Below are positions 1,892 through 39,711 of a stretch of 58,906 nucleotides of DNA, in pieces. The stretch comes from a virus (taxonomy: Duplodnaviria > Caudoviricetes): positions 1-58,906 of IMG/VR virus record IMGVR_UViG_3300027779_003675; one strand, 5' to 3'. The notes under the pieces were generated by a model. That model made no database searches. It worked only from the letters and a program-made list of their open reading frames with translations, and was not told the DNA's origin. Each line of letters opens with the position of its first letter. The stretch's first letter is position 1. The position numbers and the translations under genes are program-made.

Positions 1892-4075
1892 TCAATATCT
1901 CCAGTTTATAATTCCATAGTCATGCCTGTTGTCGGCGTGAAATAAAACTCTCTTGTATCCTAGGTTTTTGACAAAAGATATATCTGCGTCCCCTTTTTCA
2001 TTATAGGGGTTCGGGTTATCTTCTATAATTTTTCTTTTTATAAGATAGCACGCTCCGACAAAAGGTACAGTCCAGCATTTTTTATCTTTCCTTTCTAGGA
2101 TGTCGAAATAATTATCGGACTGTTTGTAATATCCGCTTTCGGAGAAAGCTCCCCAAAAATTAGACTGATTAGAAACTTTTCCGTTTATTGTCTCTCTTAA
2201 GACCGGAGCTACTACGTTTTTGTTTGTTTTTATTAGCTCGTTGAGGGTTTCTGGATTTCTCAACAAGCAAAGGTTCTCTATATAAAAGTGGTAATCGTAA
2301 TTGTAGTTAAGGGACTCTTTAAATATTCGATTTCTTTTTGGCCCTTCGCGCTCATTTGTTGGGCTGTATAACACCTCTTTGTAATCGTTAACGTCTATAG
2401 CTTCTTTTATGGTTTTTAGTTTATCTTGAGAGTCTTCTATATGGAGTATTATATTGGATTTAGGAAAGTTGAGATCTCTAACGTAGTTGAAGAACTTCCC
2501 CCAATTAGCGCTATCTAAGTTAGAGACGCAGTAAAGAGAAATATAAACAATAGGATTGTCTATAAGTTTACCAGTTGGTGAAAATGAAAAATCAGAGCTC
2601 CAACCTTTAGTTAGGTAATTGGATAAAGCCCAAAACTTTTCCTTACTAGAGTTTCCGTGCGCCACCAACGGTCTCGTGTTAGTGACCGTGTTATGCAGTC
2701 TTCCTCCTTCGATTGTTACGTCGTCGTAGGACCACCCCAAGCATTGAAAAATTTCACATTTGTAATCTAAAGAAATCAACCTCTTGTGTCTTCCGTTTAG
2801 GAATTCGAGGGTATAGTATAGTTGGTCGTCCGATATGTTAGGTAAGCTGTCATCCTTGGCTCGTTGAGTTATTTTACTTAAGTCTTTAGCGTAACCTATG
2901 AAGGATCCTGAGTTTAAGTATCTATAGTGATAAGGAGACTCTGGGTATCTGTTAGCTAAGGACCTGTCGGGCCAACAAGACTGTTCCGCCGCAAACAAGG
3001 TGGGAATGTTTTTCGATAGAAATAACTCTACGATACGTTTCAAGCTATCTAAGAATAAAATATCATAGCCATCCACAAATAGAACTATGGCGTTAGGGTC
3101 TTTTTTTAGCTTTTCTAGCTCTGGGATTAGTAGGTTGATTTTTTGTCCTCCCCCGGGGTCGCTCACCATATCTCCTCCTCCCCAAGGGGAATCTAGCCCT
3201 AATATTTTCAAGGGGATTTCGTTTGCTACCGATGTCCTTATATGTTTTTCCAGACCTTCGTTTAACGCGTTGTCAGCTACCGTGTAGCAGTATATGTTTT
3301 TTTTATATAAGCTTACGCATGAAGTATCTTTCTCTATGTCTGAGTTGTACCCTTGAGGTAAGGCTTGTTGCCAAATTTCGAACTTGCCGAGGTTAGAAGA
3401 TAAAGCTTTTATAACCGGGGTAAAAACTTCAGAAAAATCCTTTCTCCTATGCTTAGTCCAACAGGCGGCTAAGAATTCATCTGGCGTTACTAAGTTTTCT
3501 AATATCTTGGTTGACAGGAGCTTTGAGGCTCCCTCTTTTCCTATAATGTAAGCGTGGGTGTTGTACGAGAAAGCGGGCTTAACAAAAAGTTCTTCTCCGT
3601 CTACTGGCTCTTCTTTATTTTTCGAGACTTTGTTTCTCCCTAAGTAGAGAACATCTGTATCGGGGCATTTGGGTAATGACTTTGTTATAAACTTTTTAAG
3701 TTCGCCGGAATGCCAAAAAGCGTCGTCTTCTAATATAAGGGCTGTTTCGTTTTTCGATACTATCTCTTTCCATAAGTGTAAATGACTCAGAGTGCAGCCT
3801 ATTTCTGGGCTTCTAACTTCTCTGTTGTCCCAGCCGGAAAAATTAAATCCTTGAAAACTGCTAGTTTCAGACGTTTTCCATTTAGGGTAAACTTTACATT
3901 TTTGTTCGAGTAACCAGTGTTGAAGCAGGTTGACATCGATATTCCTAAAATCAAAAGCCTCTACGAACTTTATAGGAACGCAGAGGCCTTCTTCGAGGAG
4001 TAATTTAGATATTCTGTCTTTTTTTTCTCTTCTAGCTTTGAGGTTTAAGACGTATATCCTGTTTATGGAAAGCAT
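1892..4075 (-). CDS. Fusion of a COLGALT-like GT25 domain with PLOD/LH3-like glycosyltransferase and accessory domains (no hydroxylase domain)
   Basis: N-term: IYVLNL, EIGCTLSH, LILEDD, SYNTHAY, TPDEFL, GYNSDIE. Middle: WGGGD, GGGQKI, FVDGYD, AEQSCWP, YLNSGSFIG, DDQLYY, HGN. C-term: SNFWGA, GYYKQSDNY, WTVPFV, DADISF. Confidence 0.88.
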   Translation of the reverse strand: MLSINRIYVLNLKARREKKDRISKLLLEEGLCVPIKFVEAFDFRNIDVNLLQHWLLEQKCKVYPKWKTSETSSFQGFNFSGWDNREVRSPEIGCTLSHLHLWKEIVSKNETALILEDDAFWHSGELKKFITKSLPKCPDTDVLYLGRNKVSKNKEEPVDGEELFVKPAFSYNTHAYIIGKEGASKLLSTKILENLVTPDEFLAACWTKHRRKDFSEVFTPVIKALSSNLGKFEIWQQALPQGYNSDIEKDTSCVSLYKKNIYCYTVADNALNEGLEKHIRTSVANEIPLKILGLDSPWGGGDMVSDPGGGQKINLLIPELEKLKKDPNAIVLFVDGYDILFLDSLKRIVELFLSKNIPTLFAAEQSCWPDRSLANRYPESPYHYRYLNSGSFIGYAKDLSKITQRAKDDSLPNISDDQLYYTLEFLNGRHKRLISLDYKCEIFQCLGWSYDDVTIEGGRLHNTVTNTRPLVAHGNSSKEKFWALSNYLTKGWSSDFSFSPTGKLIDNPIVYISLYCVSNLDSANWGKFFNYVRDLNFPKSNIILHIEDSQDKLKTIKEAIDVNDYKEVLYSPTNEREGPKRNRIFKESLNYNYDYHFYIENLCLLRNPETLNELIKTNKNVVAPVLRETINGKVSNQSNFWGAFSESGYYKQSDNYFDILERKDKKCWTVPFVGACYLIKRKIIEDNPNPYNEKGDADISFVKNLGYKRVLFHADNRHDYGIINWRY

Positions 4076-4084
4076 CTATCTATA

Positions 4085-4852
4085 TTAGCCCAATTTATTG
4101 ATTCTTTCTATCAATTTGAACGTCAGGCTTTTGGGGATGTCCTCTAGCTCCGTGATTCCCTCTGGGTCTTGAACCATCTCCTCTTTAGCTATCTTGCTTA
4201 TGACATCTTCGAAGCTTACTCCTTTTTCTTTCATTTTTTTAGCTAAAAGAAAACTTGGATTAGCCAAAGCGTTCCGCTTTGATTTAACTGAGGCTGGGGC
4301 CGAGGAGCTTCCTGACGATGATGAAGATCCTGACGATGGTGAAGATCCTGACATTTCGTCCCAAGAGACGATGTTAATCTTTAAGAAGTTCCTTACGCAT
4401 CGGCAAAAGGATCTGTTTTCCGCCATTTCAACTAGGTATAGCTTTCCGAATCCATTGGTATTATCTACCGTAGCGGAGCTCATGGACTGAAACGTTACCT
4501 CCCTGTTTTCTGTTTCGTAATTCGGTGTCCATTTTATAGTGCAGGAGGCCGCTGCGTATTCGAGAGATGCAAATTTTATATCGTACCCAACGTCTACGAA
4601 CCCTCTTATTTGGGCGAGATCTTTTATTCCCCCTAAAAGGATTATTAAGTCTCTGTCTTGCAGTTGGCTCACGTCCGTCTCTTGGGTCCTCTGCCTATTC
4701 GGCACTAAAAATTCAGACTTAACCATTTTCCTCCAATCTACTAGTCCGTTTTCTTGGTAAACGTAGTCTAGCCCCTCCGTTAGTCCGTACTCGTTGCGTT
4801 TGATTACCTTGGGAGGAGTGGATTTGCTTGTGGTTTTGGTCTTAGCAGCCAT
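4085..4852 (-). CDS. Putative Rad52/Sak-superfamily single-strand annealing protein
   Basis: EMAENRSFCRCVRNFLKI..DE resembles the Rad52-fold core helix; Ser-rich linker; recombination context. Confidence 0.5.
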   Translation of the reverse strand: MAAKTKTTSKSTPPKVIKRNEYGLTEGLDYVYQENGLVDWRKMVKSEFLVPNRQRTQETDVSQLQDRDLIILLGGIKDLAQIRGFVDVGYDIKFASLEYAAASCTIKWTPNYETENREVTFQSMSSATVDNTNGFGKLYLVEMAENRSFCRCVRNFLKINIVSWDEMSGSSPSSGSSSSSGSSSAPASVKSKRNALANPSFLLAKKMKEKGVSFEDVISKIAKEEMVQDPEGITELEDIPKSLTFKLIERINKLG

Positions 4853-4858
4853 GAGGGT

Positions 4859-4887
4859 ATCCTACTGTGTCTTTGCTGAAGAGTCAA
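4859..4887 (-). promoter_or_regulatory. sigma70-like promoter, leaderless
   Basis: TTGACT-N17-TAGGAT-N6-ATG(4852). Confidence 0.7.
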
Positions 4888-6079
4888 GCTTTTTCTCTAC
4901 CAGAAAGCAGAGGAAGTCGGCCTCCTCCCAAAAGAGGTCTTCGTTTTCTGGGTTTAGCTCTACTTTTGTGATTTTTTTGGTTAATTTCTCTATAGGTTTA
5001 TCTGTTTTCCACCCATATTCTGAGTCATAAATTTTTCCTCTAGATAATATAAACTTATTGGGCAAATAAAATAATTTATTAATATCAACGCCCTCTAGTT
5101 GTTTTATATTTTCCTTTTTCGTTATACTCTCACTGTTTACTATTGTTAAGCTATCTAAAAACTCAAACTTTAGATCGTTTAACTCTTCGCCTTCGAGCTG
5201 ACTCATGACTTCAAGGGGTACGGGTATTTGAGTTAAGGTTTCTACAAACTCTATCATAGAGTTATCTTTCACTCTGCATATGACTTTTATTATTTTGTCT
5301 TTATTTGCCTTTACCAAGGCGATGCTGATTGGCTTGTCAGTTACTATAACGCATTTGTTTTTGTCAAAAACAGGAAGAAGGTTCTCTTCGCTAAAGTGCA
5401 AGTCCATTCTAACCACCAAAGGGTTTACTTCTGGGAGGCTAGTTACCGCGTCAGGTATATACTCTATGATAGTTTGCTTGTATTGTTTACCTAGGTAGAT
5501 TATCTCGTAGTCATAGTCGAAATCTATTTCCAACAGCTTGCAAACAGATGAGGTTATTACGTCGGGAAATATCGTATTTATAGTCTTGGGGAACTCCTCC
5601 TTTGCGTATGTCGGCTTGTCTCCCCCTTTGTCCGAATCTAAAAGTATAAAGTCTGAATCTTCCGACCAGTATGGAGCAGAGTTTTGAGGTGGAGCGTTAG
5701 AGTATAAACCCACTATCTTTCTTCCGTAATGTGACGCTATATGAATAGGAAAGCTATCAATACCAACATGACATAAGGAATTTTTTATAATATATGCCGT
5801 TTGAGAGATAGAGGTTTGGCCATTTAGGCAAATAATGTTTTGGAGAGCTTTATCTTCCTTAGTGCCTACTTGCACGATAGTTATACCGTGTGGGGAGAGG
5901 AACTTGTTTAAAAAGTCTACCGTGTCTTGCCAATAGTCGTAGGTTCTAGAGTCGAACTTGCCGTCTCCTGTATGCAAAGTTATGTATTTACTAGCAGGGA
6001 CAGCAAAAAATCTCTCTAAAATAAAAGGCTTGTCTATTTTTAGTCCGGAACTTGTAGAGTAAGCTTCTAGTATATGCAT
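4862..6079 (-). CDS. GT9 (heptosyltransferase-like) C-terminal Rossmann domain plus an unknown domain
   Basis: YITLHTG, IVQVG, LNGQTSISQTAYII, HVGIDSFPIHIAS..IVGLY. Confidence 0.75.
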   Translation of the reverse strand: MHILEAYSTSSGLKIDKPFILERFFAVPASKYITLHTGDGKFDSRTYDYWQDTVDFLNKFLSPHGITIVQVGTKEDKALQNIICLNGQTSISQTAYIIKNSLCHVGIDSFPIHIASHYGRKIVGLYSNAPPQNSAPYWSEDSDFILLDSDKGGDKPTYAKEEFPKTINTIFPDVITSSVCKLLEIDFDYDYEIIYLGKQYKQTIIEYIPDAVTSLPEVNPLVVRMDLHFSEENLLPVFDKNKCVIVTDKPISIALVKANKDKIIKVICRVKDNSMIEFVETLTQIPVPLEVMSQLEGEELNDLKFEFLDSLTIVNSESITKKENIKQLEGVDINKLFYLPNKFILSRGKIYDSEYGWKTDKPIEKLTKKITKVELNPENEDLFWEEADFLCFLVEKKLDSSAKTQ

Positions 6080-7986
6080 CAGTTCTTTAGGTCAAAGTTT
6101 ATTTTGTCTACACCGTTGTGTTGGTAGTTGAAAAGCTTCTGCGTTCCTATAAAAGGCAAAAAAGCTATTTCAAAATAACCTTTATGATTCCCGCACCCCT
6201 CCAGCCATAACAACTTATCCATTTGAGGGAAGTAAGGGATAGCCTTGTATACGTAAGGGTTGCCGTCTAGAAGCGGAAAGTTCCCCCTGTTGGTCGCTAC
6301 ATATAGATTGTAATCTGGGTAAGTGCTATTAAGGGCTTTAAACAAAGCCGTAGACATAAACACGTCCCCCATGCTTTCCGGTATAACGTATAGAATTCTT
6401 TTTCCCTCGTCGTCGTCTAGGAATTCATTTAGGTCAAATTTCTTAAGCTTAGCGTTCGCCTCCGCGGCTGTCCTTCTGAAAAATTCTTCTACTTTTTTTG
6501 GCTCAACTCCCTTCTGCATTTGGTTTATCCAGTATTGATACCCTTCGTCTTCTATGGTTATGCGGCGTCTTCTAAGGACGTTCTTATACATTGAAAGAAG
6601 CCATTCGCTTGTGTTGCTTGGGTCGACTTCAACCTTAGCTTCTGGGTCGTTCTTTTCTGCCTCTATTTTTATCTCAGAGTAGTCCGCTTTTGGCGCGCCG
6701 TCTATAAATCGCTCTATACGCTTGGCGGTTTTTTCTACCGAGAAGTTGTCAATAGCCCACTGTCTGGATAGCTTTTCTTTTTCTCTTTTTTCTTTTTCGC
6801 CCATTTTGTAGACGCTAGTTAACCCTTCGCAAATAGAACTTGGGTAAGTGCTAGCTTTTCTAAAAAGAGTTTGAATTTCTCTATACTCGCCCCATTCCAG
6901 AGGGATAGATTGAGACCCTTCTTCGCAGCTTTTTTCCCCGCAGCTATAATTAGTCACTAGAGTAATGAGCTCTGCCATCTTAGCTTCTTGTATGGGTATT
7001 TCTTGCCCTCCGCTGGTAAACGGGTGGCAGTAAACGTCCATTAAGTTGTAGATTTCATTGAGTTCGTTTTCCGTGACTCCGTTAAGTATATTAGATGTAA
7101 CTTGACTTTTTTTATTTCCGCAAGATAGGCAGTCTAACCCCTGTCCTTGAAAAGCCTTTACTTCGTACTCGTGGCACTGGGAGCATTTATACGTAGTTAA
7201 AATGTCCGAGTGTTGGACGTTGTATTCGTCGGCAAGTCTTAATATGTTCCAACCCTCATCCCAGTGAGTGTGAAGCAGTAGCTTTCCTGAGCTTCCTGTT
7301 TGAGCTTTCCACATGGAGAAGCCCTCTATCAGGTTTGGCACTAGCTTCCTTAGCTGGTTTCTAAAGACGAAACCTATTACGAACTCGTCATGGCGTATTT
7401 TAAATTTTTTTCTGAGGGCTTTTCTTTTTTCTTCTTCGAGCCTCCTGAAGCTTGAATGATCTATGCAGCCATGCAGGGTTTCAACTTGGCCAAAGCCTAG
7501 CCTCTTAAGCTCTTTCTCTGCGAAGTTACTCCATACCCAGAAGTTTTTAGCTTCTTTTGCGCATTTTATAGCAGTGGGGATAATCGGCAGGGAGTCTAGG
7601 GTCGTCCATATTGCCGAGGTGATCTCATTGAACCATGCTTTCTCCAAGGCGAAGTCAACGCCCCAGATATCCTGACACCCTATGTATACATCGGGTTTTT
7701 CGTCTTTTATAACTTTATCTATGAGGTCGGCCCCGTAAGAAGTCCTTCTGGCTTGCTCCGGGTCAGGGCTTGTTGGCTGGTTGGGGGGTATAGTTCCTAT
7801 GCTTTTCCAAGGCGTGGCCCGAAGCTTAGGGTCGTTAGCTACTGTCCCGCAGCAGTAATGGACTATGTCGTATTTCTTTGTTTTATATAAATACGATAAA
7901 AGGGCCTTGGCGTTTCGGCCAAAGCCCGTTTTCATTAAAGCGAAATCGCTTTGAAATATTAGCTTCTTTTTACCATTCTTGGTCAT
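6079..7986 (-). CDS. GT4 glycosyltransferase with Zn-ribbon insertion and a C-terminal GT9 N-domain
   Basis: TGFG, RNQLRK, YNLMDVYCHPFTSGGQEIPIQEA; CSQC..CLSC insert; RILYVIPESMGDVFMSTAL..YPD..LLDGNPYV. Confidence 0.8.
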   Translation of the reverse strand: MTKNGKKKLIFQSDFALMKTGFGRNAKALLSYLYKTKKYDIVHYCCGTVANDPKLRATPWKSIGTIPPNQPTSPDPEQARRTSYGADLIDKVIKDEKPDVYIGCQDIWGVDFALEKAWFNEITSAIWTTLDSLPIIPTAIKCAKEAKNFWVWSNFAEKELKRLGFGQVETLHGCIDHSSFRRLEEEKRKALRKKFKIRHDEFVIGFVFRNQLRKLVPNLIEGFSMWKAQTGSSGKLLLHTHWDEGWNILRLADEYNVQHSDILTTYKCSQCHEYEVKAFQGQGLDCLSCGNKKSQVTSNILNGVTENELNEIYNLMDVYCHPFTSGGQEIPIQEAKMAELITLVTNYSCGEKSCEEGSQSIPLEWGEYREIQTLFRKASTYPSSICEGLTSVYKMGEKEKREKEKLSRQWAIDNFSVEKTAKRIERFIDGAPKADYSEIKIEAEKNDPEAKVEVDPSNTSEWLLSMYKNVLRRRRITIEDEGYQYWINQMQKGVEPKKVEEFFRRTAAEANAKLKKFDLNEFLDDDEGKRILYVIPESMGDVFMSTALFKALNSTYPDYNLYVATNRGNFPLLDGNPYVYKAIPYFPQMDKLLWLEGCGNHKGYFEIAFLPFIGTQKLFNYQHNGVDKINFDLKN

Positions 7987-8539
7987 CTAGTGGGTCTGCT
8001 TTTTGTGGCTCGGGTTTCGGTTCAGATTTCTGTGGTTCTTTAGGTTCGGCTTCTGCTTTATTATTTTTACCGGTATAGGCTGTTTTTTCAAAGATTCTTT
8101 CTAAAGAGTAGATTAAGAACTGCTTTAGCATTCTAGCCTCTGGGTAATATAAGCCTATGACAAAGCTGATTTTATTGGTTGAATCCTCTTTGTCTTCTTT
8201 ATTTACGGAGAAGGAGTACCCTACTTGTTTATTGTCTTTCTTGCTGACGTACGGCGCAAATTTAAATTTTACTATTTGGTTTTTACTTCCGTGGTAGCCG
8301 CCGTATTCGGCGTTTCTTTCAATTGCGTCTACTATACCTGAAGCTTCAACCATGCTGAATTTAACCATGACTTTAGCTCTTGGGTTGTCTTTATTCTTTA
8401 CGAAGCTTCCGATTCTCCTGTCGGCATTCCAAGAATCCTGCTTGATGAACGAAGAAAAAAAGGCTTTCTCTTCCGTGGAACTCCAAAAGGAGCAGGCGCT
8501 CCCAGTGACTTTAGGGTTAGGTTTATAGAACTGAATCAT
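7970..8539 (-). CDS. Putative Whirly-fold single-stranded DNA-binding protein
   Basis: Residue pattern (FYK..; KFSMVEASGIV; YH; FKFAP; GYSFSV; IGLYYPEARML) parallels Whirly; acidic-aromatic tail DPLDDQEW; next to dnaE. Confidence 0.45.
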   Translation of the reverse strand: MIQFYKPNPKVTGSACSFWSSTEEKAFFSSFIKQDSWNADRRIGSFVKNKDNPRAKVMVKFSMVEASGIVDAIERNAEYGGYHGSKNQIVKFKFAPYVSKKDNKQVGYSFSVNKEDKEDSTNKISFVIGLYYPEARMLKQFLIYSLERIFEKTAYTGKNNKAEAEPKEPQKSEPKPEPQKADPLDDQEW

Positions 8540-8551
8540 AACAAAGGAGGC

Positions 8552-8580
8552 ACTTTAAGTCTTTTCTGTTTCTAAGTCAA
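8552..8580 (-). promoter_or_regulatory. sigma70-like promoter
   Basis: TTGACT-N17-TAAAGT, 12 nt before ATG 8539. Confidence 0.65.
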
Positions 8581-11148
8581 GACTTTTTCTGCTTTAAGAT
8601 CAGAAAGTTTTGTAAAGATCTTATTGCTTTGGACGACTATTACGTCTGCGAATACAGCTTCGTCTACTTTGGTTCCCCTGATTATAACGATATTCTTTTC
8701 TCGGGGTAGGCCGTCATTCGCTACTTTGCATTGTTCTAATTTCTCTTTGAAGATTAAAACTTTCGTAAATCCTGTTTCGTCGGAGATTGCTAGTCGGCAA
8801 TATTTGTTACCCTTCTTAGAGCTTCCTGAGTAGGGTTTTTCGTCCACCGTACCTATGAAGGCTACTTTAGTCTGTAGGTCCGCCTCTTCGATTTCCCTTA
8901 TGCTCATCAGCCCTTCGCGCTTACTTTTAAATATATCCTTCAGCATTCTTCCGTGCGTATACCCTAGTAAGTGTTTTTCGTAGTACCAGTTAGCGAAACT
9001 TTCTGATTTTTTGTTTTGGGCATATATGTCTCTGTATGGGGCGCATTTTTTTCTTATAGTTCCCATTCTGGACTCTCTAATTAGCGGTTTTCCTTTATCG
9101 TCTTTTTTTGAATCTAGAAGTTTTAAGAGGGCGACTAAGTCGTAGCTTCCTCCCTCGGAGTATTTCATGCATAACTGCTTTTCCTTTTGGGTTAGTATGT
9201 TCCAGAGCTGAGCTTCGTATACGACCTTGGTTCTGGATTGTTTGAAGCCTTCTAACGCTCCCGCCTGTATGAGGGCGCAAAGCGTTCCTATGTTAAGGAT
9301 AGCCTCACTTGCCGCTTGGAAGATTTCGAACTTATTTGCGTACTCGTTTTTAAAATCATTAAGTCGGTCTATGGATTTATCCGATATGCCTTTTATAGAA
9401 AGTAAGCCAAACCTTATGTCGTCTCCTTCGATTGAGAAGTCTAACTTAGACTTAACTATATGCGGGGCGAGAAGTTTAATATTGAAAAGGCTTAGTTCTC
9501 TTTCTATTTTTGATATTTCTTTAATTGGGTCTGGTTCATGGCGAGTCATCTTAAGGAGGGATAGGAAGAACTCCTTTGGGTGTTTGAATTTTAGGTAGGC
9601 AGTCGCTGCCGATAAGGAAGCGTAAGCTATAGAATGAGACTTGTTGAAGGAGTAGTTCGCTGAGTCCTCCAAGACTCCCCACAATACGTCTCCTACGTCG
9701 ACTTCACCTTTATTGCCCGTCCATTCGGAGGAGAGCCTGTTCTCTTTTACTTTCTCTCGGATTTTCTTTTTCCACTGCTTGACTTCTTTGATTTTCTTCT
9801 TACCTACTATCCTTCTTAGTATCTCCGCCTCGTCCAATGTGAAGCCGACTTTGTTTGCCATTTGCATCATTTGCTCTTGGTACAAGCAAACACCACCGGT
9901 TGTGGATAAAATGTCGTCAAATAAGGGGTGTATCGCTTCGTAGCTGTCGTTGTTGGTGTAGTTGGCGTATTGATCTACAAAGGCGAGTGCTCCCGGTCTC
10001 CCTAGCGCAAGTACCGCGCTTAGCTCTTCAAGGTTGCGGGGTTTAACTTTTTGGCAAACCCTGAAGTTGGTGTCGGCCTCTATCTGGAATAGCCCATGTG
10101 GGGCACGTAGGTCTTGTAGCTGCTGGTAAATGAAAGGATCGTTTAAATCTATATCCTTTACGTCTATGCCTATCTCTTTGCATGCGTTATCAACGACAGA
10201 TACGCTTCTTAGCCCTAAGATGTCTAATTTGACATTGAACAACGAGACCCAGTTCATGTCGTAAGAAGACACGATGTCTTTATCTGATGTGAGCTCGGTG
10301 GGGCAGCCCTCTTCTATATTGTCGTAAGACAACAATACTCCGGATGGGTGGGAGCCTTTATTCTTTATCAGGTTCCTTAGTCTGAGCGCCGTCTTGTATA
10401 CCTTTTCGTTTTCTCCGCACCAGCTATCGAAGTCTTCGGCCTCTTCTCTCGCCTCCTCTATGTCTTTAACCTTGCCGAATACCTTAGGGATAAAAGAGGA
10501 GACAGTGTTCATTTCGGACTCCTCTTTTCCTGCTACTATTTTTCCACACTCCTTCATTAGCAGTTTACCGCTAAGGGTGTTTAAGGTTAAAATTTTAGAG
10601 GTTTTGCCTTTGAATTTAGTATCCAAATACTCCAAGACCTTACTTCTGTTATAGTAGCAAACGTCGATGTCTACATCACACATTAGTGATCCGTCCAAAT
10701 AGGTAATATCGTCAATAATTTGCTTTTTAGCTCTTGTCTTAGAAATAAACCTCTCAAAGAATAGGTTGTATTTTATTGGGTCTATCTTGGTTACCCCTAT
10801 CCAGTAAAGCACAAGGCTTCCTGCTGCTGAGCCTCTTCCTAGGCCAACTGGTATTTCGTTTTTATTACAAAAATTAATAACGTCCCAAACTAAAAGTATA
10901 TAATCAACGAAACCCAAGTCTTCAAGCGTATCTAATTCGTACTTTGTTCTGTTCGTGTACTCTTCGGCTTTAGTCGGCTCGATCTCCTTGCTTAAAAGTT
11001 TTTTTTCGTAGCCCTCGAAACATAAAGACTTAAGGAAGCTTAAGTTGTCTACGTTTGTTTTATTTTCTTCTACTTTGAATTCAGGCAACCTAACCCCATG
11101 CATATCTATTTTTATGGGTCTAAATTGTTTTGTAAATTTTTCACTCAT
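8572..11148 (-). CDS. dnaE: DNA polymerase III alpha subunit lacking the PHP domain
   Basis: GLGRGSAAGSL, CDVDIDV, HPSGV, KLDILGL, LFQIE, YQEQ, YSFNKSH, IRFGL..IKGI, OB fold. Confidence 0.95.
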   Translation of the reverse strand: MSEKFTKQFRPIKIDMHGVRLPEFKVEENKTNVDNLSFLKSLCFEGYEKKLLSKEIEPTKAEEYTNRTKYELDTLEDLGFVDYILLVWDVINFCNKNEIPVGLGRGSAAGSLVLYWIGVTKIDPIKYNLFFERFISKTRAKKQIIDDITYLDGSLMCDVDIDVCYYNRSKVLEYLDTKFKGKTSKILTLNTLSGKLLMKECGKIVAGKEESEMNTVSSFIPKVFGKVKDIEEAREEAEDFDSWCGENEKVYKTALRLRNLIKNKGSHPSGVLLSYDNIEEGCPTELTSDKDIVSSYDMNWVSLFNVKLDILGLRSVSVVDNACKEIGIDVKDIDLNDPFIYQQLQDLRAPHGLFQIEADTNFRVCQKVKPRNLEELSAVLALGRPGALAFVDQYANYTNNDSYEAIHPLFDDILSTTGGVCLYQEQMMQMANKVGFTLDEAEILRRIVGKKKIKEVKQWKKKIREKVKENRLSSEWTGNKGEVDVGDVLWGVLEDSANYSFNKSHSIAYASLSAATAYLKFKHPKEFFLSLLKMTRHEPDPIKEISKIERELSLFNIKLLAPHIVKSKLDFSIEGDDIRFGLLSIKGISDKSIDRLNDFKNEYANKFEIFQAASEAILNIGTLCALIQAGALEGFKQSRTKVVYEAQLWNILTQKEKQLCMKYSEGGSYDLVALLKLLDSKKDDKGKPLIRESRMGTIRKKCAPYRDIYAQNKKSESFANWYYEKHLLGYTHGRMLKDIFKSKREGLMSIREIEEADLQTKVAFIGTVDEKPYSGSSKKGNKYCRLAISDETGFTKVLIFKEKLEQCKVANDGLPREKNIVIIRGTKVDEAVFADVIVVQSNKIFTKLSDLKAEKVLT

Positions 11149-11344
11149 TTCTTTTGCCTTCTTTTATTCCTATTCTTTTTAATATTTGCTTCAGGGACTT
11201 GACGGCTTCTTCGTCCGACAACCTATAAAACACGTTTGACCTGTCGGCGTTTTCTTCTCCCGATCTTTTAATTGTTACTATAAAATAATCGTACTCTTGG
11301 TCTTCGAGTTTATCTTTGAGGTCGTATACGAAATCTAAAGACAT
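11141..11344 (-). CDS. Hypothetical protein
   Basis: 67 aa, fills the gap in the replication operon. Confidence 0.7.
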   Translation of the reverse strand: MSLDFVYDLKDKLEDQEYDYFIVTIKRSGEENADRSNVFYRLSDEEAVKSLKQILKRIGIKEGKRNE

Positions 11345-11345
11345 G

Positions 11346-11987
11346 TTAAACTTCGACGCTCCATTTTATCTTATTCCAGACTTTTAGGTTGAGTTTCAAA
11401 TCTACTAGTGCGTCGTGCAGGTTATCGTAGTCGTGTTCTATATTGTACTCTTTCCCTAGGGCCTTAAGGTTCGACCTCACTCCTTTTTGCCTTTTGTGTA
11501 GTATTTTGTATTGATAGGCGGTAAGGGAATCTACTTTTCTGTTGTAGGGTATTCCGTATTTTATACCCCTAGCTAGGTAGTTGGTGTCTATAATCTTGTC
11601 AACTAGGTGGCTATAGCTCCTACCCATTGATCTGTAGAGGCTTTTTATTAAAAAGATATCGAACCCTAATAAATTGTGCCCGGCGATGTAGTCGCAGTTA
11701 TCGAGCTGTTCTGATATTATGCTGAAGGCTTGAATCTTGTCTATCGCCTTTGACTCATGTAGCTTGCGGTTGAATCTGGTTATCTGTGCGGCCTCTTTGC
11801 TTATTTTGAGGTCGGTGTCCCACTTTATATGTATGTCCCATGAGTTGACAGCTTTGTCGCCTTTACATCTTATCATTGCTATCTGCCAAGGCAGGTTGTG
11901 AACCTCGTTAAGGCAAAGGTTGAAGGTCTCGCAGTCTATGAAGACTATTTCCTTCTCTTTATCGTATCTAAGAAGATCTTCGTCCAT
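11346..11987 (-). CDS. dnaQ: DEDDh 3'-5' exonuclease (DnaQ/epsilon-like)
   Basis: FIDCET, AGHNLLGFD, IIDT, LHDALVD. Confidence 0.88.
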   Translation of the reverse strand: MDEDLLRYDKEKEIVFIDCETFNLCLNEVHNLPWQIAMIRCKGDKAVNSWDIHIKWDTDLKISKEAAQITRFNRKLHESKAIDKIQAFSIISEQLDNCDYIAGHNLLGFDIFLIKSLYRSMGRSYSHLVDKIIDTNYLARGIKYGIPYNRKVDSLTAYQYKILHKRQKGVRSNLKALGKEYNIEHDYDNLHDALVDLKLNLKVWNKIKWSVEV

Positions 11988-11991
11988 TACT

Positions 11992-12618
11992 TTACCTTGC
12001 TTCTAATTGCTCTTGGAAATTTGCATCATACTTTCCTGAGTCTAATTTATTAAGAAACGCCTTAAGCATAATTGCAGATTCTGATTCCACTTCTAAAAAA
12101 CGTCCTTTTTTATCTCTGCCTTGGGGTTCAACAAGGAACTTGCTTAGGAGTCTTGTTTCCTGACATTCCGAACCTGTGAAATCGGGAATTCCCCAACACA
12201 AATCAAACCACTCTGTTTTTCCTTCCAGCGTAGGCCAATTCTCGAAGCCCCCCTCGTATCCATTTTCGTGCCTAATATTGCAGTAGTCATACTCTTTATG
12301 AAGGGACTCTTCCGATAGCTTGGTCGATTCTCTTTTGGCAGCTATAATTCTAAAACTACCCTTCCAGTCTGTTACATTTTCGTATTTCCGGCTTAGCTTT
12401 GAGAGTCTAGCTTCAGGGCGATGAGATCTGCCTATCTTATAAATAGCCTTACAACCCCAAGGATATTCATCTAGAAACGTCCATTTCATTACGTAGACAT
12501 ACTTATTGAGGTAATCTTCTTGATGGGCCTGTATCCAAGTTAAGCCTTCCAAATCGCCCTTGTCAACAAGGAGATTCCTAAGGGTTTGGTATCTTTTGAG
12601 GTTTCTTTTGTAATCCAT
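11992..12618 (-). CDS. T5orf172/GIY-YIG family nuclease
   Basis: YVYVM, YKIGRS, E..LH, TEWF. Confidence 0.75.
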   Translation of the reverse strand: MDYKRNLKRYQTLRNLLVDKGDLEGLTWIQAHQEDYLNKYVYVMKWTFLDEYPWGCKAIYKIGRSHRPEARLSKLSRKYENVTDWKGSFRIIAAKRESTKLSEESLHKEYDYCNIRHENGYEGGFENWPTLEGKTEWFDLCWGIPDFTGSECQETRLLSKFLVEPQGRDKKGRFLEVESESAIMLKAFLNKLDSGKYDANFQEQLEAR

Positions 12619-13085
12619 TATACTGACAGTTTATGAATTGGAATATTATAGCAATCGGCCTTAAAGATGAAGTTATTGTCGGGGTCGACTTCTCCTTTTT
12701 TATGAAAGATGGCGGTTTCATAAAATTCCTTTTTGCTTATTTTGCCTAAATACCAAGCTTCTTTTAGGTCGTCCAATACGCTTACGAAAGCGTACTCGTC
12801 GCAGTCTTGTCTGGTGTTGAAGTCAGCAACCGAACATTCGTAGTAATTTCTTGGGGGTACGGTTCTTTCTTTTGTTTTAACGTCCACCTTGGTTTCTCCG
12901 TAGACGATATCGTAGTCGTAGGTATCTTCTATCTCGCCTCCGAGGACATGCTTGGCTACCTCTTCGCCTATATAAGCTACCATTTTGCCTTCCCCTTTTC
13001 TTATAGAGTTGTTGAGTAGCGGCAGCTTCTCAGCTCTTACCTTTGCTCTATCTAGCGCCGTTTTAGTTATTTTGAATTTTCTCAT
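12618..13085 (-). CDS. Putative PD-(D/E)xK nuclease-fold phage protein
   Basis: GEE..YDYDI..KVDVKTK. Confidence 0.6.
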   Translation of the reverse strand: MRKFKITKTALDRAKVRAEKLPLLNNSIRKGEGKMVAYIGEEVAKHVLGGEIEDTYDYDIVYGETKVDVKTKERTVPPRNYYECSVADFNTRQDCDEYAFVSVLDDLKEAWYLGKISKKEFYETAIFHKKGEVDPDNNFIFKADCYNIPIHKLSV

Positions 13086-13827: not shown

Positions 13828-13833
13828 GGGTAT

Positions 13834-13862
13834 ACCTTATGCGGTTTCTGGGGTTAAGTCAA
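13834..13862 (-). promoter_or_regulatory. sigma70-like promoter, leaderless
   Basis: TTGACT-N17-TAAGGT-N6-ATG(13827). Confidence 0.72.
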
Positions 13863-13866
13863 GCTT

Positions 13867-17203: not shown

Positions 17204-17221
17204 TTGAAATTTAGAAGTTGA

Positions 17222-19327: not shown

Positions 19328-19333
19328 GAAGGC

Positions 19334-25338: not shown

Positions 25339-25342
25339 TGTT

Positions 25343-27983: not shown

Positions 27984-28822
27984 TTTAATAGGTATTCTAA
28001 ATTTCCCTCTGGTTTGTTAAAATCTTTTGATCTTTTTTCGTACCTTGCGTTTGACTCACTTGCGTCTACGCCGTGAACTTCTCTGGCGAGGCAAATTATC
28101 GAATCTTTACTTCCTCCGTGTCTAGCTGGGTAAAGTTTTTTAACTTTTAAGCCTTTTGCTTCTATGATTTTTCTAAGCTGTCCGTGGTTGCAGTCGTAAT
28201 CTGAGGCAAAGTGGTTTCCTTTCTTGCTGCAGATTAGACTAAAGAGCCCTTCTTTGTTTCCGAAAAGTTTCTTAGCGTTTTCTGAGCTAGACAATGTGTA
28301 CAAATCGGAAAACCCCATGTCTCTCTCAACTGGAGGAGAGGAAGTTAAATAAACGTATTGAGGGCTGAAGTTGTCGAACGTGAACTTTTTATTATAATGA
28401 AGATCAAACCTTACCAGCATACATAAGTCGTAATTGAAGTTGTTCGCTTTTTCGTGTTCTTCCATTAGCCCTATAGCTTTTTCTGCCGAATACCATTTGC
28501 TGTACATGTTATGGAACCTAAGGCCTCTGTGTATAGATTTGTTATTTATGGGCCTTGCTCCCGCAAACTCTTCGTGGCCTACGGTGTATCGGTTTTTGAA
28601 TATTATTTGTTTTTCAAAAATCTTTGAGATTGGTTGGTATAGTGAAGTTATTTCTTCTTCTTTATCGCATGACCAAGAATGCATAAATACGCCTACCTCT
28701 TTGTTTGGTTCTAGTATATTTTCTTTGAAGTTGGCGTGCATTTTGCCCTGTTCAAGCTGTTCGCCAAAGCCATACCTTTCCATTGATCCGGAGAGTCCGT
28801 GAAATACTATTGCTGTTTTCAT
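27980..28822 (-). CDS. Putative glycosyltransferase-like protein
   Basis: VFMHSW, YDLCMLVRFD, FSD motifs; located in the glycan island. Confidence 0.55.
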   Translation of the reverse strand: MKTAIVFHGLSGSMERYGFGEQLEQGKMHANFKENILEPNKEVGVFMHSWSCDKEEEITSLYQPISKIFEKQIIFKNRYTVGHEEFAGARPINNKSIHRGLRFHNMYSKWYSAEKAIGLMEEHEKANNFNYDLCMLVRFDLHYNKKFTFDNFSPQYVYLTSSPPVERDMGFSDLYTLSSSENAKKLFGNKEGLFSLICSKKGNHFASDYDCNHGQLRKIIEAKGLKVKKLYPARHGGSKDSIICLAREVHGVDASESNARYEKRSKDFNKPEGNLEYLLK

Positions 28823-29466
28823 TCTCCTAAAAAGTTTTGCGCTTCGTCCCCTTCGTCTCCTTGTATGCTGTGGACCCCGTACTGGCCTATATGATCCGCG
28901 TAACTGTCTTTAGTACAAAGCATTTTAAGGTTTTGTTCTTTTGCTATTTTGGTAAAGGTCCAGTCCCAAGAAGGTTGATTAGAGGGTATTTGATTAAAAA
29001 GGTCTCTGCTGATGGCAAGCGCAAAGCCTCCCAAAGATTCTTTCTCTACTAAGTGTTCGTTGTAGTCTCCTATCTCTGGGTGACTGGGGGTGTTAAAGGT
29101 TGATACTCCGGCTAACTTTTCTTTAATTTCTAGAGTTCTTTTCTTGAGGTTGTTATACCATTCGGGGTTGTAAATGGCGTCGCTATCAGTGGTTATAACA
29201 TAGTCGTCGTCTGTGTTGTCGAACGCTGTCTTGATAGACAAAAGCATGTTGGGGTCGCAGCCTATATTTTTTTTGTTATAGTTTATATTTACATTAAGGT
29301 TCTCCTTATGTCCTAGGGACTCCAAAAGCTTCTTTATCCTGATGTCTTCACTAGCGTCATCAAAAATAAATAAATTAGTGGGTTCATTAAAGTTTGTATT
29401 AAAAAGCGACTTTATAGACCTAAGCAGATACGAGTACCTGTTGTAACATGTCATTCCAATATTCAT
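28819..29466 (-). CDS. GT2 glycosyltransferase
   Basis: CYNR..L, IFDDAS, TDSD, WD, HIG. Confidence 0.85.
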   Translation of the reverse strand: MNIGMTCYNRYSYLLRSIKSLFNTNFNEPTNLFIFDDASEDIRIKKLLESLGHKENLNVNINYNKKNIGCDPNMLLSIKTAFDNTDDDYVITTDSDAIYNPEWYNNLKKRTLEIKEKLAGVSTFNTPSHPEIGDYNEHLVEKESLGGFALAISRDLFNQIPSNQPSWDWTFTKIAKEQNLKMLCTKDSYADHIGQYGVHSIQGDEGDEAQNFLGE

Positions 29467-30002
29467 TAGCTTGGGAGAACCTTGATTAACTGGTCGTTTA
29501 CTCTGGCTATACCCTCAGGGGGGGCTGACCCTTTAAATTTTAGTTTTATATTGGCTTTGTTTTTATGGTGGTTTTCCGAGCCTATTCTAGCGCTTACTTT
29601 CTCTCCGTTAGCTTCGTCGTTTGAGAACTCTCCTATATCAACGTCAAACTCCATCTCCAGTTCTGATATTGACAAATGCTGACTGGGGGCAAGGGTTAAT
29701 AGGGGAATGTCAGTTTCAGCTTCTCCTCCCTCGTTGGTTGGAAGTTTAATTCTATAGCATTTTGGAGTTCCGTCTTCGTCGAAGTACGTCCTCATAACGT
29801 GAGCCATATGCTCCGTTTCGACTCTTCTTTGAGCGAATGAAACAGAGTTGTATAAAGCCCTTATCAGCTCATCGAAAGACTTGTTCGGAGCGGGGTTGTC
29901 CGTCGGCCCTTCCTTTACTTTTACCTCTGCCGCTGGGGCTGCCGCTGGAGCTTTATCCTCTGGGGGAGGGTCTTTCGGAATATAGTAGTTAGTGAGTCCC
30001 AT
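29466..30002 (-). CDS. DUF2589 family protein (second of pair; ATG at 30002 preferred)
   Basis: AQ..YFD, DIPLLTL, LSISELEMEF, PPEGIARV. Confidence 0.75.
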   Translation of the reverse strand: MGLTNYYIPKDPPPEDKAPAAAPAAEVKVKEGPTDNPAPNKSFDELIRALYNSVSFAQRRVETEHMAHVMRTYFDEDGTPKCYRIKLPTNEGGEAETDIPLLTLAPSQHLSISELEMEFDVDIGEFSNDEANGEKVSARIGSENHHKNKANIKLKFKGSAPPEGIARVNDQLIKVLPS

Positions 30003-30038
30003 AAAAAAAGAAAACCTCACTAAATAATAGAGAGGTTT
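30003..30038 (-). terminator. Intrinsic terminator between the DUF2589 genes
   Basis: AAACCTC-CTA/TAG-GAGGTTT hairpin followed by a T-run on the - strand. Confidence 0.6.
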
Positions 30039-30064
30039 ACTTGATTTTTAAAATGTTTTTAAGG

Positions 30065-30718
30065 CTACTTGGTCGGCTGTGGTGCTATGGCGTTGCCAAG
30101 AATATCCAAAACCTTCATTAATCCTTCGGGTGCTCCGTCGTCCCTCGCTTCAACGTGTACCGTGTATCTGGCTGAGTTGTCCGTCTTTCTTGTGTTTGAG
30201 CTCTTGCTGGCAACTGAAGCTGATAGGTTGGCTTTTACTGGGGACCACCAAGCGCTGTAGCTTACTCCCAGCTTCGTGCTGGTGTCTAGCGAGCTTGAGG
30301 AGGCAGTACTCGTCTTGACTGTCATGTCGAAGTCGATAGTGACGTTCTTGACGCCTAGGGATGGAGTGTTAACTATAGAAAGAAGGGGCACCTTTAGGTT
30401 TCTTTTTTCTATGTCATGGACGATATAGGTCCCTGTAGTGGGTGGGCTTCCTGCTCCTGCGTAAACTGCGTTTGCACCGGTTGCCGGTATACCGGCAATG
30501 GTTGGGTCCAGTGTGGCTTCTTTCTCTACAGGAACGTCGTAGTTAAAGTCAACGGTTCTGGCTACTAACTTTGTGCCGACCTTTTGAAGGCCAATGTCTT
30601 CAATGAACTTTGTTGTAGTGTTCGCGAGTTGACCCTGCGCCTTCGCTGCCGCCATAAGAGGCTCGCCTATAAGCGAGTCCATGGGGAGCCCTTTGAATTG
30701 ATCTGCTATTCTAGCCAT
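30065..30718 (-). CDS. DUF2589 family protein
   Basis: QFKGLPMDSLIGEPL.AAAKAQ..LA, KVPLLSIV.P.L, DNSARY.V, PEGL.KVLDIL. Confidence 0.82.
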   Translation of the reverse strand: MARIADQFKGLPMDSLIGEPLMAAAKAQGQLANTTTKFIEDIGLQKVGTKLVARTVDFNYDVPVEKEATLDPTIAGIPATGANAVYAGAGSPPTTGTYIVHDIEKRNLKVPLLSIVNTPSLGVKNVTIDFDMTVKTSTASSSSLDTSTKLGVSYSAWWSPVKANLSASVASKSSNTRKTDNSARYTVHVEARDDGAPEGLMKVLDILGNAIAPQPTK

Positions 30719-38490: not shown

Positions 38491-38583
38491 AATTGTTGTA
38501 GGTTGGTTTTGCTGGGGGAGCACAATCTTAGTGAGCGAAAAAAAAGACAGACGAAAACGTAAGAGCCGAGACCGTAAATCATT

Positions 38584-39006
38584 GTGAAAATAAGAATAAA
38601 AAGACTTAAACCTGACGGAAGAGTACCGACAAGAGCGAAAAGCTCAGACGCTGGATACGACCTGTATTCAACCGCAGACATGTTAATTACTCCGACAGCC
38701 AGAGAACTTGTCCCCACGGGCATCGCTATAGAAATACCCGAAGGGTACTACGGAAGAATAGCTCCTAGAAGCGGGTTAGCCGTCAAAGCAGGCGTTGACA
38801 TCTTGGCCGGAGTTGTGGACTCAGGCTACAGAAACGAAGTAAAAGTAGTTATGATAAACCTAGGGCAAGGATTAGTTTCCATAACTAAAGGAGACAGGGT
38901 AGCTCAATTAATTATAGAGAAGTGTCATGACGCAGAGTGGGAAGAAGTCAAAGAGTTGTCTGACTCCGACAGAGGAGAGAGCGGCTTTGGCAGTTCTGGC
39001 AATTAA
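38584..39006 (+). CDS. dut: dUTPase
   Basis: AGYDL, APRSG, GVVDSGYR, RVAQL, RGESGFGSSG. Confidence 0.96.
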   Translation: MKIRIKRLKPDGRVPTRAKSSDAGYDLYSTADMLITPTARELVPTGIAIEIPEGYYGRIAPRSGLAVKAGVDILAGVVDSGYRNEVKVVMINLGQGLVSITKGDRVAQLIIEKCHDAEWEEVKELSDSDRGESGFGSSGN

Positions 39007-39012
39007 AAACGA

Positions 39013-39711
39013 ATGACAACCCTTAAGGATAAGTGGATAGAGACGGGCTTATCCGCCCCTTCGGAAGAAGACCTCGACGGATATACAATATTCTCAGAAG
39101 AGAACGTTTCCGACGCTAACTGGAGAGCGAAGTACCTTTCCCCCAATATAGTCAGCAACACTTGGGACCTAACCTTAGACGAAATTGGCCACCAAGGACA
39201 CACTCATATATTCAACACAGGCAAGGTCTTCTCTCCTTCTTACTGCGGGGAAATAATTAAAGAAGCGGAAAAAAACGGAGGCTGGTCAAGTAAACGTCAC
39301 GACAACTACCCAACTACCGATATGCTTTTAGACAAATTAGGAGCCAATACAGCTTACGAGAACGTCTTAAGAAGGTATATTTACCCGACTATTGTGGAGA
39401 AATGGAGACTGGAGGGGGAAAAATGGAACAAGCTAAAGGGGGAAAACTTTATAATAAGGTATAACCCCGGAGAACAAGCAGGACTAGCCCTTCACCACGA
39501 CTTTAGCGAATTCACATGCCTCACCACCCTAAACGAAGACTACGAAGGAGGCGGAACTTGGTTCTACAACCAAAAGACCTTACTTAAAAATGAAACCGGA
39601 GAAATGGCCTTTCACCCGGGGACGATAACCCATCTTCACGGAGGCAGACCAGTAACCGCGGGTGTAAGGTATATTATAGTTTCATTTTGCAGGTGTGATG
39701 GAGACGACTGA
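39013..39711 (+). CDS. PLOD-type lysyl hydroxylase catalytic domain (2OG-Fe(II) dioxygenase), stand-alone
   Basis: W..KY, C.E.I..E..GGWS..RH..YPT.D, NFIIRY.P.EQ..L..HHD.S.FT, DYEGGG, HPG.ITH.H.G.P.T.G.RYIIVSF. Confidence 0.88.
   Translation: MTTLKDKWIETGLSAPSEEDLDGYTIFSEENVSDANWRAKYLSPNIVSNTWDLTLDEIGHQGHTHIFNTGKVFSPSYCGEIIKEAEKNGGWSSKRHDNYPTTDMLLDKLGANTAYENVLRRYIYPTIVEKWRLEGEKWNKLKGENFIIRYNPGEQAGLALHHDFSEFTCLTTLNEDYEGGGTWFYNQKTLLKNETGEMAFHPGTITHLHGGRPVTAGVRYIIVSFCRCDGDD

Follow-up and report, generated by a model that had tools for sequence, protein, structure and literature searches.

A candidate two-gene system for the hydroxylation and glycosylation of collagen-like fibre lysines in a marine tailed phage

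The glycosylation of collagen through hydroxylysine (Hyl) is commonly taken to be a property of metazoans, with mimivirus as the one other case. In animals one chain carries a PLOD-type glycosyltransferase (GT) domain, an accessory (AC) domain and a lysyl hydroxylase (LH) domain, as in human LH3/PLOD3 (PDB 6fxk), and a second protein, COLGALT1, provides a transferase of family GT25. Acanthamoeba polyphaga mimivirus has the same four domain types, distributed as GT25-LH (L230; PDB 6ax6, 9nev) and GT-AC (R699; PDB 9dyt), with a further GT25-like protein, R655. I consider here two genes of an uncultured marine phage, carried by IMG/VR record IMGVR_UViG_3300027779_003675, all 58,906 bp of which were analysed and are called the window below. 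One gene encodes a GT25-GT-AC protein (P0001) and the other a stand-alone LH (P0002), and comparison of their sequences with those of characterised enzymes makes it probable that together they modify the collagen lysines of the phage's own fibre protein.

The activities of L230 and R699 have been shown experimentally, according to the accessible text of a review (PMC9614988) and of PMC9546862. As given there, the N-terminal domain of L230 resembles GLT25D1 and adds glucose (Glc) to hydroxylysine, the C-terminal part being the hydroxylase (PMC9614988), and R699 glucosylates galactosyl-Hyl but not Glc-Hyl, the GT25-like R655 being left without test (PMC9546862). As for phages, the available part of PMC2938197 describes arrays of cyanophage dioxygenases and predicts bacterial hydroxylation of collagen-like proteins, without treating the LH family, and the available portions of PMC7029224, PMC9301287 and PMC12220804 draw no link to PLOD-type modification in phages. 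The initial annotation of the window, made from the letters alone, knew of no such pathway described in a phage; a full-text literature search, with most subscription journals outside its coverage, likewise found no description of a PLOD-type hydroxylase or of hydroxylysine glycosylation in phages. The enzyme family to which the system belongs, a large one in marine phages, appears to have no description in print.

P0001, a protein of 727 aa, is encoded at 1892..4075 on the (-) strand and has three domains. The central one (residues 258-494; 2594..3304, (-)) is a PLOD-type GT domain of the LH3/R699 glucosyltransferase type, matched by Pfam GT_PLOD (PF25342) with an E-value of 4.9e-65 and 219.6 bits, against a cut-off of 27. 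The LH3-like motifs noticed in the initial annotation are all there, between positions 308 and 473: GGGQK at 308, FVDGYD at 333, CWP at 367, LNSG at 387, DDQ at 416 and HGN at 473. Most of their residues are invariant among 24 relatives, and D335, D338, W368, P369, D416, D417, Q418, H473, G474 and N475 do not vary in alignments of 26 and 24 relatives. I take DxxD, CWP, DDQ and HGN to be the metal and donor motifs, as in structures of LH3. When P0001 was compared with the PDB by phmmer, residues 264-722 aligned with positions 19-491 of the 718-residue human LH3 chain (E 6.7e-58) and residues 282-722 with positions 35-456 of the 458 in R699 (E 1.9e-54). The alignment covers the GT and AC domains of LH3 without its hydroxylase domain, and the protein ends at the point where that domain would start, much as had been claimed at the outset. 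The AC domain itself (residues 495-727; 1895..2593, (-)) is defined by alignment to LH3 and R699 and carries PF13704 as a precomputed annotation.

The N-terminal third of P0001, implied though not listed in the initial annotation, is by its sequence a GT25 (COLGALT-family) domain, of the type found in COLGALT1 and at the N-terminus of L230 (residues 6-188; 3512..4060, (-); Pfam Glyco_transf_25, PF01755, E 2.3e-18, 67.3 bits against a cut-off of 24). Residues 81-218 align with positions 372-514 of COLGALT1, its catalytic domain (E 1.4e-28), and its acidic, DxD-type motif E116-D117-D118 is invariant in the same two alignments. COLGALT1 is matched as well by two further GT25 proteins of the window (E 6.9e-17 and 1.7e-5), and since COLGALT1 is the only GT25 structure returned, a match of this kind is by itself no proof of a protein acceptor; the sole argument that the domain may act on collagen is its fusion to a PLOD-type GT. 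The nearest relatives of P0001, from a search among proteins of similar length, are 48-82% identical to it over 714-737 aa, with the same three domains and no hydroxylase. NCBIfam has no family for either P0001 or P0002.

P0002 (39013..39711, (+)) is a stand-alone LH-domain protein of 232 aa, identified by PDB alignments and by its fold, with a core double-stranded beta-helix at residues 72-226 (nt 39226-39690, (+)). That core aligns with LH3 548-713 (E 3.2e-22), and residues 35-226 align with positions 34-234 of the 235 in the crystallised hydroxylase domain of L230 (E 3e-17); the next, unrelated PDB match has an E-value of 0.33. The protein has the W..KY motif at residue 37, ends in ...VRYIIVSFCRCDGDD, and contains the complete HxD..H..R site first read from the sequence, its residues H161, D163, H209 and R219 aligning with the HHD, H and R of LH3 and being invariant in 24 stand-alone homologues. 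From the literature on LH3 and L230, the first three are presumably the iron triad and the last the arginine that binds 2-oxoglutarate. An AlphaFold model of P0002, made from the alignment of these homologues (mean predicted local distance difference test score, pLDDT, 80.7) retrieved LH3 and L230 by Foldseek with E-values of 3e-15 to 1e-13 and a template modelling (TM) score of 0.83 to the LH domain of L230. The best prolyl hydroxylase retrieved, the PBCV-1 enzyme, came at E 4e-6 with a TM score of about 0.5-0.6. The initial annotation had asked whether the dioxygenase would cluster with generic phage hydroxylases of proline or DNA bases; it does not, LH3 and L230 being far nearer in both sequence and fold, and that candidate was rejected on the PDB matches and the Foldseek ranking. 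P0002 is thus, on sequence and model, of the lysyl-hydroxylase type, with a predicted activity on X-Lys-Gly. Its nearest relatives (59-78% identity, 211-243 aa, again from a near-length search) are also stand-alone.

The two proteins tile LH3 (19-491 and 548-713) without overlap, with E-values well out of the reach of chance. The same is seen with phrog_61, a PHROG family named "2OG-Fe(II) oxygenase", of whose profile P0001 matches positions 60-385 and P0002 positions 447-630. In the window the one-chain GT-AC-LH architecture of animals is absent; instead there are GT25-GT-AC and LH, encoded on opposite strands 35 kb apart. The different domain partition originally proposed is therefore upheld: all three catalytic domains, LH, GT25 and PLOD-type GT, are present with their motifs intact. 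Human LH3 and COLGALT1 thus resemble the phage pair in their conserved catalytic motifs, and the covalent GT25-GT fusion of P0001 mirrors the non-covalent human LH3/ColGalT1 complex (PDB 8zgc). They differ in that GT, AC and LH share a single chain and GT25 belongs to another protein, which has an additional N-terminal domain unmatched in P0001 (where the GT25 domain begins at residue 6), and in the context of the endoplasmic reticulum, which the phage proteins lack. The mimivirus proteins are a parallel in that P0002 spans the whole of the crystallised L230 LH domain and P0001 nearly all of R699, and the targets in both viruses would be their own collagen-like proteins. The partition differs (GT25-LH and GT-AC in mimivirus, GT25-GT-AC and LH in the phage). 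The host differs also: because the window comes from a tailed bacteriophage and not from a giant virus of amoebae, the reactions would occur in bacterial cytoplasm. Viral PLOD-type collagen modification is already known from mimivirus; the form predicted from the window has a new partition and belongs to a virus of another host class.

The presumed substrate is encoded close to P0001, by a collagen-like fibre gene with GPKGQKG repeats, of which the 3' end, cut by the start of the contig, lies at 1..588 (+). Its translation contains ...GPKGQKGLASSVAGPKGQKG..., and 12 of its 15 lysines directly precede a glycine, all 12 within the first 95 residues and in the repeat part; it matches PHROG tail-fibre families (phrog_5073, E 2.4e-12). 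The orthologue in L171, a relative with 81% DNA identity from an independent metagenome assembly, reads GQKGAKGAKGQKGTTGDKG..., and its repeats are canonical G-X-K over 22 triplets (GQKGAKGAKGQKGTTGDKGTKG...). Both assemblies end inside the fibre gene, evidently through a break in the repeat. The P0001 gene is 1.3 kb from the fibre gene in the window and in L171, and the space between them is occupied by a putative glycosyltransferase gene (Caps_synth-like; 1251..1889, (+); PF05704 E 2.5e-5, 24.3 bits against a cut-off of 24.5), which is also conserved in L171. A second collagen-like protein is encoded near the other end of the window, at 56414-56836 (+), by a gene flanked by GT25 and GT1 genes. 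It has 140 aa, with a CxxC N-terminus and a C-terminal (Gly-Ala-Thr)n repeat free of lysine, and is possibly another, Thr-glycosylated, fibre component.

In order to follow the fibre and the enzymes together, I compared the window with related phage genomes and contigs (designated G or L, and described further below). In members of this clade that have one or both enzymes, lysine occupies the Y position of glycine-X-Y (GXY) triplets in 16 of 41 cases (G005), 38 of 101 (G031), 4 of 11 (the window) and 14 of 22 (L171). It occupies none of the 10 such positions in G001 and none of the 92 in G002, both of which lack the enzymes, and G003 and G004, which also lack them, have no GXY runs. Of two partial LH-positive records, G015 has a single GTS run and G016 has no runs. 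Lysine at the collagen Y position accordingly tracks the presence of the enzymes within the clade. The fibre genes of G005 score 50.4 bits (over the cut-off) and 26.8 bits with Pfam Collagen.

The same association was examined on a broader scale. An alignment-based scan of IMG/VR found 533 loci coding for relatives, unlike scans with P0001 or P0002 as single proteins, which found no match. The best 80 of the 533 served for counts of architecture and of lysine at Y. Within 10 kb of the enzyme gene, 44 of the 80 have GXY runs of at least six triplets, in which lysine fills 1237 of 6046 Y positions (20.5%) as against 17 X positions (0.3%); in 33 of these 44 loci lysine takes up 10% or more of Y positions. 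Among 80 enzyme-negative loci of the clade, which are centred on the polymerase and not on fibres, eight have runs, with lysine at 9 of 424 Y positions (2.1%) and none of the eight reaching 10%. The co-occurrence with Gly-X-Lys collagens that the initial annotation put forward as a check is thus found both in the clade and in the 80 viral loci.

The sequence of reactions would be as follows. In the infected cell P0002, with Fe2+, 2-oxoglutarate and O2, would turn Y-position lysines of a (Gly-X-Lys)n fibre into hydroxylysine. The GT25 domain of P0001 would then add a first hexose to the new hydroxyl group, galactose (Gal) by analogy with COLGALT1 or glucose by analogy with L230, and the adjoining LH3/R699-type GT domain would add glucose onto that hexose, the AC domain serving as a non-catalytic scaffold. 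The glycosylated fibres would finally be assembled into virions. P0001 and P0002 may associate physically in doing so, and the phage may benefit from fibres modified in this way. Within the limits of what sequence, predicted structure and genome comparison can tell, the overall interpretation in the initial annotation is supported.

How the two genes behave within the clade bears on this scheme. G005 has a GT25-GT-AC gene (16741-18894, 717 aa) and, 128 kb from it, a stand-alone LH gene (146725-147249) whose product is 51% identical to P0002. The LH gene occupies the slot that it has in the window, flanked by a dCMP deaminase gene and a homologue of window 39695-40078. A search of further clade records found LH in this slot in 3 of 39 (G015, G016 and G031), and G001-G004 have neither a P0001-type nor an LH gene. 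Both genes are therefore accessory in the clade. In G031 (L241 1489-2898, (-)) the gene in the slot encodes a 469-aa fusion protein (P0152), with a DUF6445 domain at the N-terminus followed by the LH.

The alternative that holds up best, though I judge it unlikely, is that the enzymes are active on other targets: the LH on some other Lys-Gly protein of the phage or its host, and the GT25-GT-AC protein in the remodelling of host lipopolysaccharide (LPS) or capsule, or in making a free disaccharide. Several facts lend it weight at the expense of a collagen-modifying pair. The LH gene is in an early nucleotide-metabolism block, after the genes for dCMP deaminase and dUTPase and 35 kb from the fibre and GT genes. 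Three LH-positive records of the clade (G015, G016, G031) have no P0001 homologue in the parts sequenced (35-55% complete), so the LH may act alone or on other targets. The GT25-GT-AC protein of G005 is only 30% identical to P0001 and is encoded at a different locus, from which it follows that the gene pair was not inherited as a unit. GT25 is a family of LPS transferases as well, and the window has at least nine other glycosyltransferase-like open reading frames (ORFs) plus sugar-nucleotide enzymes, so that P0001 could serve another glycan pathway. The disaccharide kojibiose is also made by R699, according to the accessible text of PMC12279948. The fibre evidence has its own weaknesses: the incomplete gene at 1..588 scores 21.5 bits with Pfam Collagen (PF01391), under the cut-off of 27.2, and its GXY runs are interrupted, the longest having eight triplets; the comparison within the clade comprises four positive and two informative negative records, with the window and L171 close kin; and many of the best 80 IMG/VR loci are near-duplicates.

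Against the action of these enzymes on other targets stands the near-exclusive placement of lysine at Y in the collagen-like genes beside the enzymes (20.5% at Y, 0.3% at X) and the absence of Y-position lysine from the collagen-like genes of the enzyme-negative clade members G001 and G002. The P0001 gene, moreover, keeps close to the fibre gene in the window and in L171, and cultured phages carry fused forms of the enzymes directly after their tail-fibre genes. I therefore retain, as the likely account, modification of the phage's own collagen-like fibre.

A narrower pathway is a less probable alternative still, and I hold it to be quite unlikely. Here catalysis would be lacking in one of the two GT domains, and the lysines would be hydroxylated only or would receive a single hexose, giving Hyl or monohexosyl-Hyl as the product. 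The GT domains of LH1 and LH2, which are reported to be non-catalytic, offer a precedent. The specificity of the mimivirus enzymes also speaks for it, L230 adding Glc and not Gal, and R699 being inactive on Glc-Hyl, in the accessible text of the reports (PMC9614988, PMC9546862): if the phage GT25 domain is a glucosyltransferase, then the second sugar step may not follow. On the other side, the metal and donor motifs of both GT domains are invariant in 24-26 relatives, and GT25 is fused to a PLOD-type GT in 73 of the best 80 loci (52+9+9+2+1, in the architectures given below), which argues for two coupled activities.

As to the identity of the contig, the window has no capsid or terminase gene in Pfam and PHROG scans of its ORFs. 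Its replisome is of bacterial type, as first described (the core of DNA polymerase III alpha, a separate ORF for the PHP domain, a DnaQ-like exonuclease, DnaB, DnaG and RecA, all by Pfam and PHROG), and it encodes besides a class II ribonucleotide reductase, a sigma factor, dCMP deaminase, dUTPase, and many glycosyltransferases and sugar-nucleotide enzymes. Among the window ORFs examined with Pfam there is no capsid or B-family polymerase of nucleocytoplasmic large DNA viruses (NCLDV). The polymerase has 257 relatives in IMG/VR (56-95% identity). One related genome, G002 (158,301 bp, with direct terminal repeats and a CheckV completeness of 100%), has homologues of 28 of the 93 window ORFs, and its positions 50664-66584 are collinear with window 4085-20354; it encodes a terminase large subunit (phrog_2, E 1e-26), PhoH and a collagen-like tail fibre. 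Another, G005 (162,379 bp, 96% complete), has 31 of the 93 ORFs in common with the window and a terminase 78% identical to that of G002. For L171, 14.7 kb of a 122-kb contig were compared; they are collinear with window 96-13869 (74-84% DNA identity), a stretch that spans the fibre gene, the P0001 gene and the polymerase genes. The GC content of the window is uniform (0.40-0.435). Synteny with complete phage genomes, collinearity with L171 and uniform GC content together indicate a phage fragment, not a giant virus or a chimera, and by its sequence the window is about one third of a large tailed-phage genome, those of the clade running to roughly 158-203 kb.

An artefact (a chimeric contig, a piece of a giant virus, or the decaying remnants of a broken fused gene) is very improbable, for in spite of an incomplete contig that lacks its own capsid and terminase genes, and of AC-domain relatives on giant-virus contigs in 7 of the best 80 loci, the uniform GC, the collinearity with L171, the synteny with G002 and G005, the phage terminases of these relatives and the lack of NCLDV capsid and B-family polymerase in the scanned ORFs rule out the mixed or giant-virus origin that the initial annotation had flagged, and the remnants of a broken gene are contradicted by the unfused state of the close relatives of P0001 and P0002 that the two near-length searches found and by the invariance of the catalytic residues of P0002 in 24 stand-alone homologues.

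The DNA polymerase III alpha gene of the window is in pieces (8572-13827, (-)), with an ORF for the PHP domain at 13063-13827 and the core at 8572-11148. Between them are two inserted ORFs, which include a gene resembling a T5orf172 endonuclease (11992-13085), then the DnaQ-like exonuclease (11346-11987) and a small ORF. The same split into PHP domain, exonuclease and core is found in G002 and G005, where a small cupin gene replaces the T5orf172 insert.

The partition found in the window is one of many, and the system is far from unique. Among the best 80 IMG/VR loci the most common architecture is GT25-GT-LH (52 loci), followed by GT25-GT-AC-LH and GT25-GT-AC (nine each), GT-AC as in R699 (seven), GT25-GT (two) and GT25-GT-AC with a separate LH ORF (one); seven of the 80 are on contigs named as metagenome-assembled genomes (MAGs) of giant viruses. 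The arrangement in cultured cyanophages is GT25-GT-LH, that of giant-virus MAGs is GT25-GT-AC-LH, and that of the window's clade is GT25-GT-AC plus LH. Eleven GenBank phage records have a fused GT25-GT-LH gene; they come from the Synechococcus phages S-CAM9, S-PRM1 and S-8S53/55/56, from Roseobacter phage CRP-6 and from one marine single-cell virus. Tail-fibre genes whose products have lysine at 27-28% of Y positions directly precede the fused gene in S-CAM9 and CRP-6, where it bears the annotation hypothetical; the S-8S5x records call it either 2OG-Fe(II) oxygenase or hypothetical. These proteins (S-CAM9 gp218, YP_009322466.1; CRP-6 gp58, QBQ72782.1; and others) thus resemble the window pair in their GT25, PLOD-GT and LH domains and in their position beside fibre genes with lysine at Y. 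They differ in being single polypeptides of about 590-670 aa without an AC domain, only 27-34% identical to the window proteins, and in the LH tree their hydroxylase domains fall with those of bacterial MAGs, apart from the LH of the window. The four-domain GT25-GT-AC-LH proteins of marine metagenomes and giant-virus MAGs (about 830-1140 aa) share about 30% identity along the full length of P0001; they too differ in being single chains, and they stand apart from the window lineage in both the LH and the GT25-GT-AC trees.

An exhaustive search with P0002 of 1.84 billion cluster representatives yielded 2504 proteins with E-values of 1e-3 or better, 844 at 1e-10 or better and 73 at 1e-30 or better. 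In 25 of these hits, examined with Pfam, the LH is fused variously to GT4-GT25, GT4, GT25, PLOD-GT (with or without AC), DUF6445, a C39 peptidase, or GT25 plus TPR. The fusion to C39 peptidase hints at modification of exported peptides. LH domains of fused metagenomic proteins (P0153-P0183) are 40-50% identical to P0002. In a series of bacterial MAGs (L180-L192; chromosomes of 1.8-4.7 Mb) an LH ORF of 199-248 aa lies immediately upstream of a GT25-GT gene. The bacteria belong to Arenicellales, Poriferihabitaceae, Porisulfidus and other Gammaproteobacteria, many of them sponge-associated, and the gene pair has the look of a cellular form of the system, or of one carried by a prophage.

An initial LH tree, limited to hits of matching length (105 rows), fell into three parts: the bacterial MAG and GT25-GT-LH phage type, the stand-alone LHs, and the animal and four-domain proteins. 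Hits from the exhaustive search added 133 rows. In the enlarged tree (238 rows, FastTree) 31 changes are required to account for the stand-alone state, and well-supported branches force at least 10 of these, so that fusion and fission have been frequent. Some of the "stand-alone" rows may be fragments. The proposal that the split was one ancient event was withdrawn after the enlarged tree scattered the stand-alone LHs. The LH of the window belongs to a clade of eight stand-alone proteins inside a group of 13 rows (12 stand-alone and one DUF6445-LH; local support 71-91), and in the next relatives beyond this group the LH is joined to GT25 or PLOD-GT. These proteins are all part of a group of about 126 microbial and viral rows, separate from the group of animal and four-domain proteins. 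The term "animal-type" in the initial annotation therefore holds as a statement of homology and fails as one of close kinship. Two rows marked as animal, P0092 and P0112, lack a source name, and P0092 does not group with the named animals. In the case of P0001, the protein and its counterpart in G005 fall together in a supported clade of GT25-GT-AC proteins that lack LH (Shimodaira-Hasegawa-like approximate likelihood-ratio test, SH-aLRT, 96). The IMG/VR loci of this clade (L004, L005, L009, L011, L061 and L067) have terminase, PhoH and further genes in common with G005, G002 or the window. Loci of other architectures have no genes in common with the window's clade, or only a single weak match.

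A wider proposal suggests itself, whose chances of being right or wrong I put about even: that collagen Hyl-O-glycosylation is a widespread route of fibre building in bacterial viruses, its domains freely shuffled in hundreds of marine phage lineages, cultured cyanophages and roseophages among them, and some bacteria; that the LH of the window's clade is an independent gene of the early module that serves a bifunctional GT25-GT enzyme; and that the microbial radiation is possibly older than the animal enzymes. On that view the GT25-GT fusion would be a natural Rosetta stone for how human LH3 and COLGALT1 form a complex. If the proposed fibre modification itself takes place, an animal extracellular-matrix modification would extend to phages, with collagen lysines being hydroxylated and glycosylated in infected bacteria of the open ocean; the virion fibres that carry them probably mediate contact with the host. 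A large class of cyanophage auxiliary genes now called "2OG-Fe(II) oxygenase" would gain a concrete function. Natural fusions and splits of the domains would bear on how LH3 and COLGALT1 cooperate. There would also be a source of small enzymes compatible with bacterial cytoplasm for the production of hydroxylated and glycosylated recombinant collagen, a use proposed for L230 and R699 in the accessible text of PMC9546862.

The two other GT25-family proteins of the window are encoded at 53262..54080 (+; PF01755 E 1.7e-11; COLGALT1 E 6.9e-17) and at 55006..55719 (+; PF01755 E 7.9e-10; COLGALT1 E 1.7e-5), and the former, going by its sequence, may be a further collagen or glycan transferase. They are part of a glycan toolkit unusually large for a phage, spread over 19365-29466 (-), 41503-42747 (+) and 53262-57920 (+), which includes GDP-mannose 4,6-dehydratase, an epimerase/reductase, short ORFs resembling UDP-glucose dehydrogenase and DegT, FkbM and other methyltransferases, a nucleotidyltransferase, transferases like GT1, GT2 and GT9, a LicD/cytidylyltransferase fusion and a relative of SunS-like peptide glycosyltransferases (E 1.8e-18, under the cut-off). 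The set resembles the autonomous glycosylation machinery of giant viruses.

Within the block of sugar-nucleotide and glycosyltransferase genes, at 25759-26949 (-), is a gene for a 396-aa protein resembling the large subunit of RuBisCO (RuBisCO_large, E 5.4e-39). It falls under the cut-offs of every NCBIfam model for RuBisCO and RuBisCO-like proteins (RLP; type III, MtnW, OiaX), has no homologue in G002 or G005, and may have been recruited for some unusual sugar chemistry. Two adjacent DUF2589 paralogues of 184 and 217 aa are encoded at 29466-30718 (-), and three tRNA genes (Met-CAT, Arg-TCT and Thr-TGT) are present at 49396-49553 and 52991-53067 (+).

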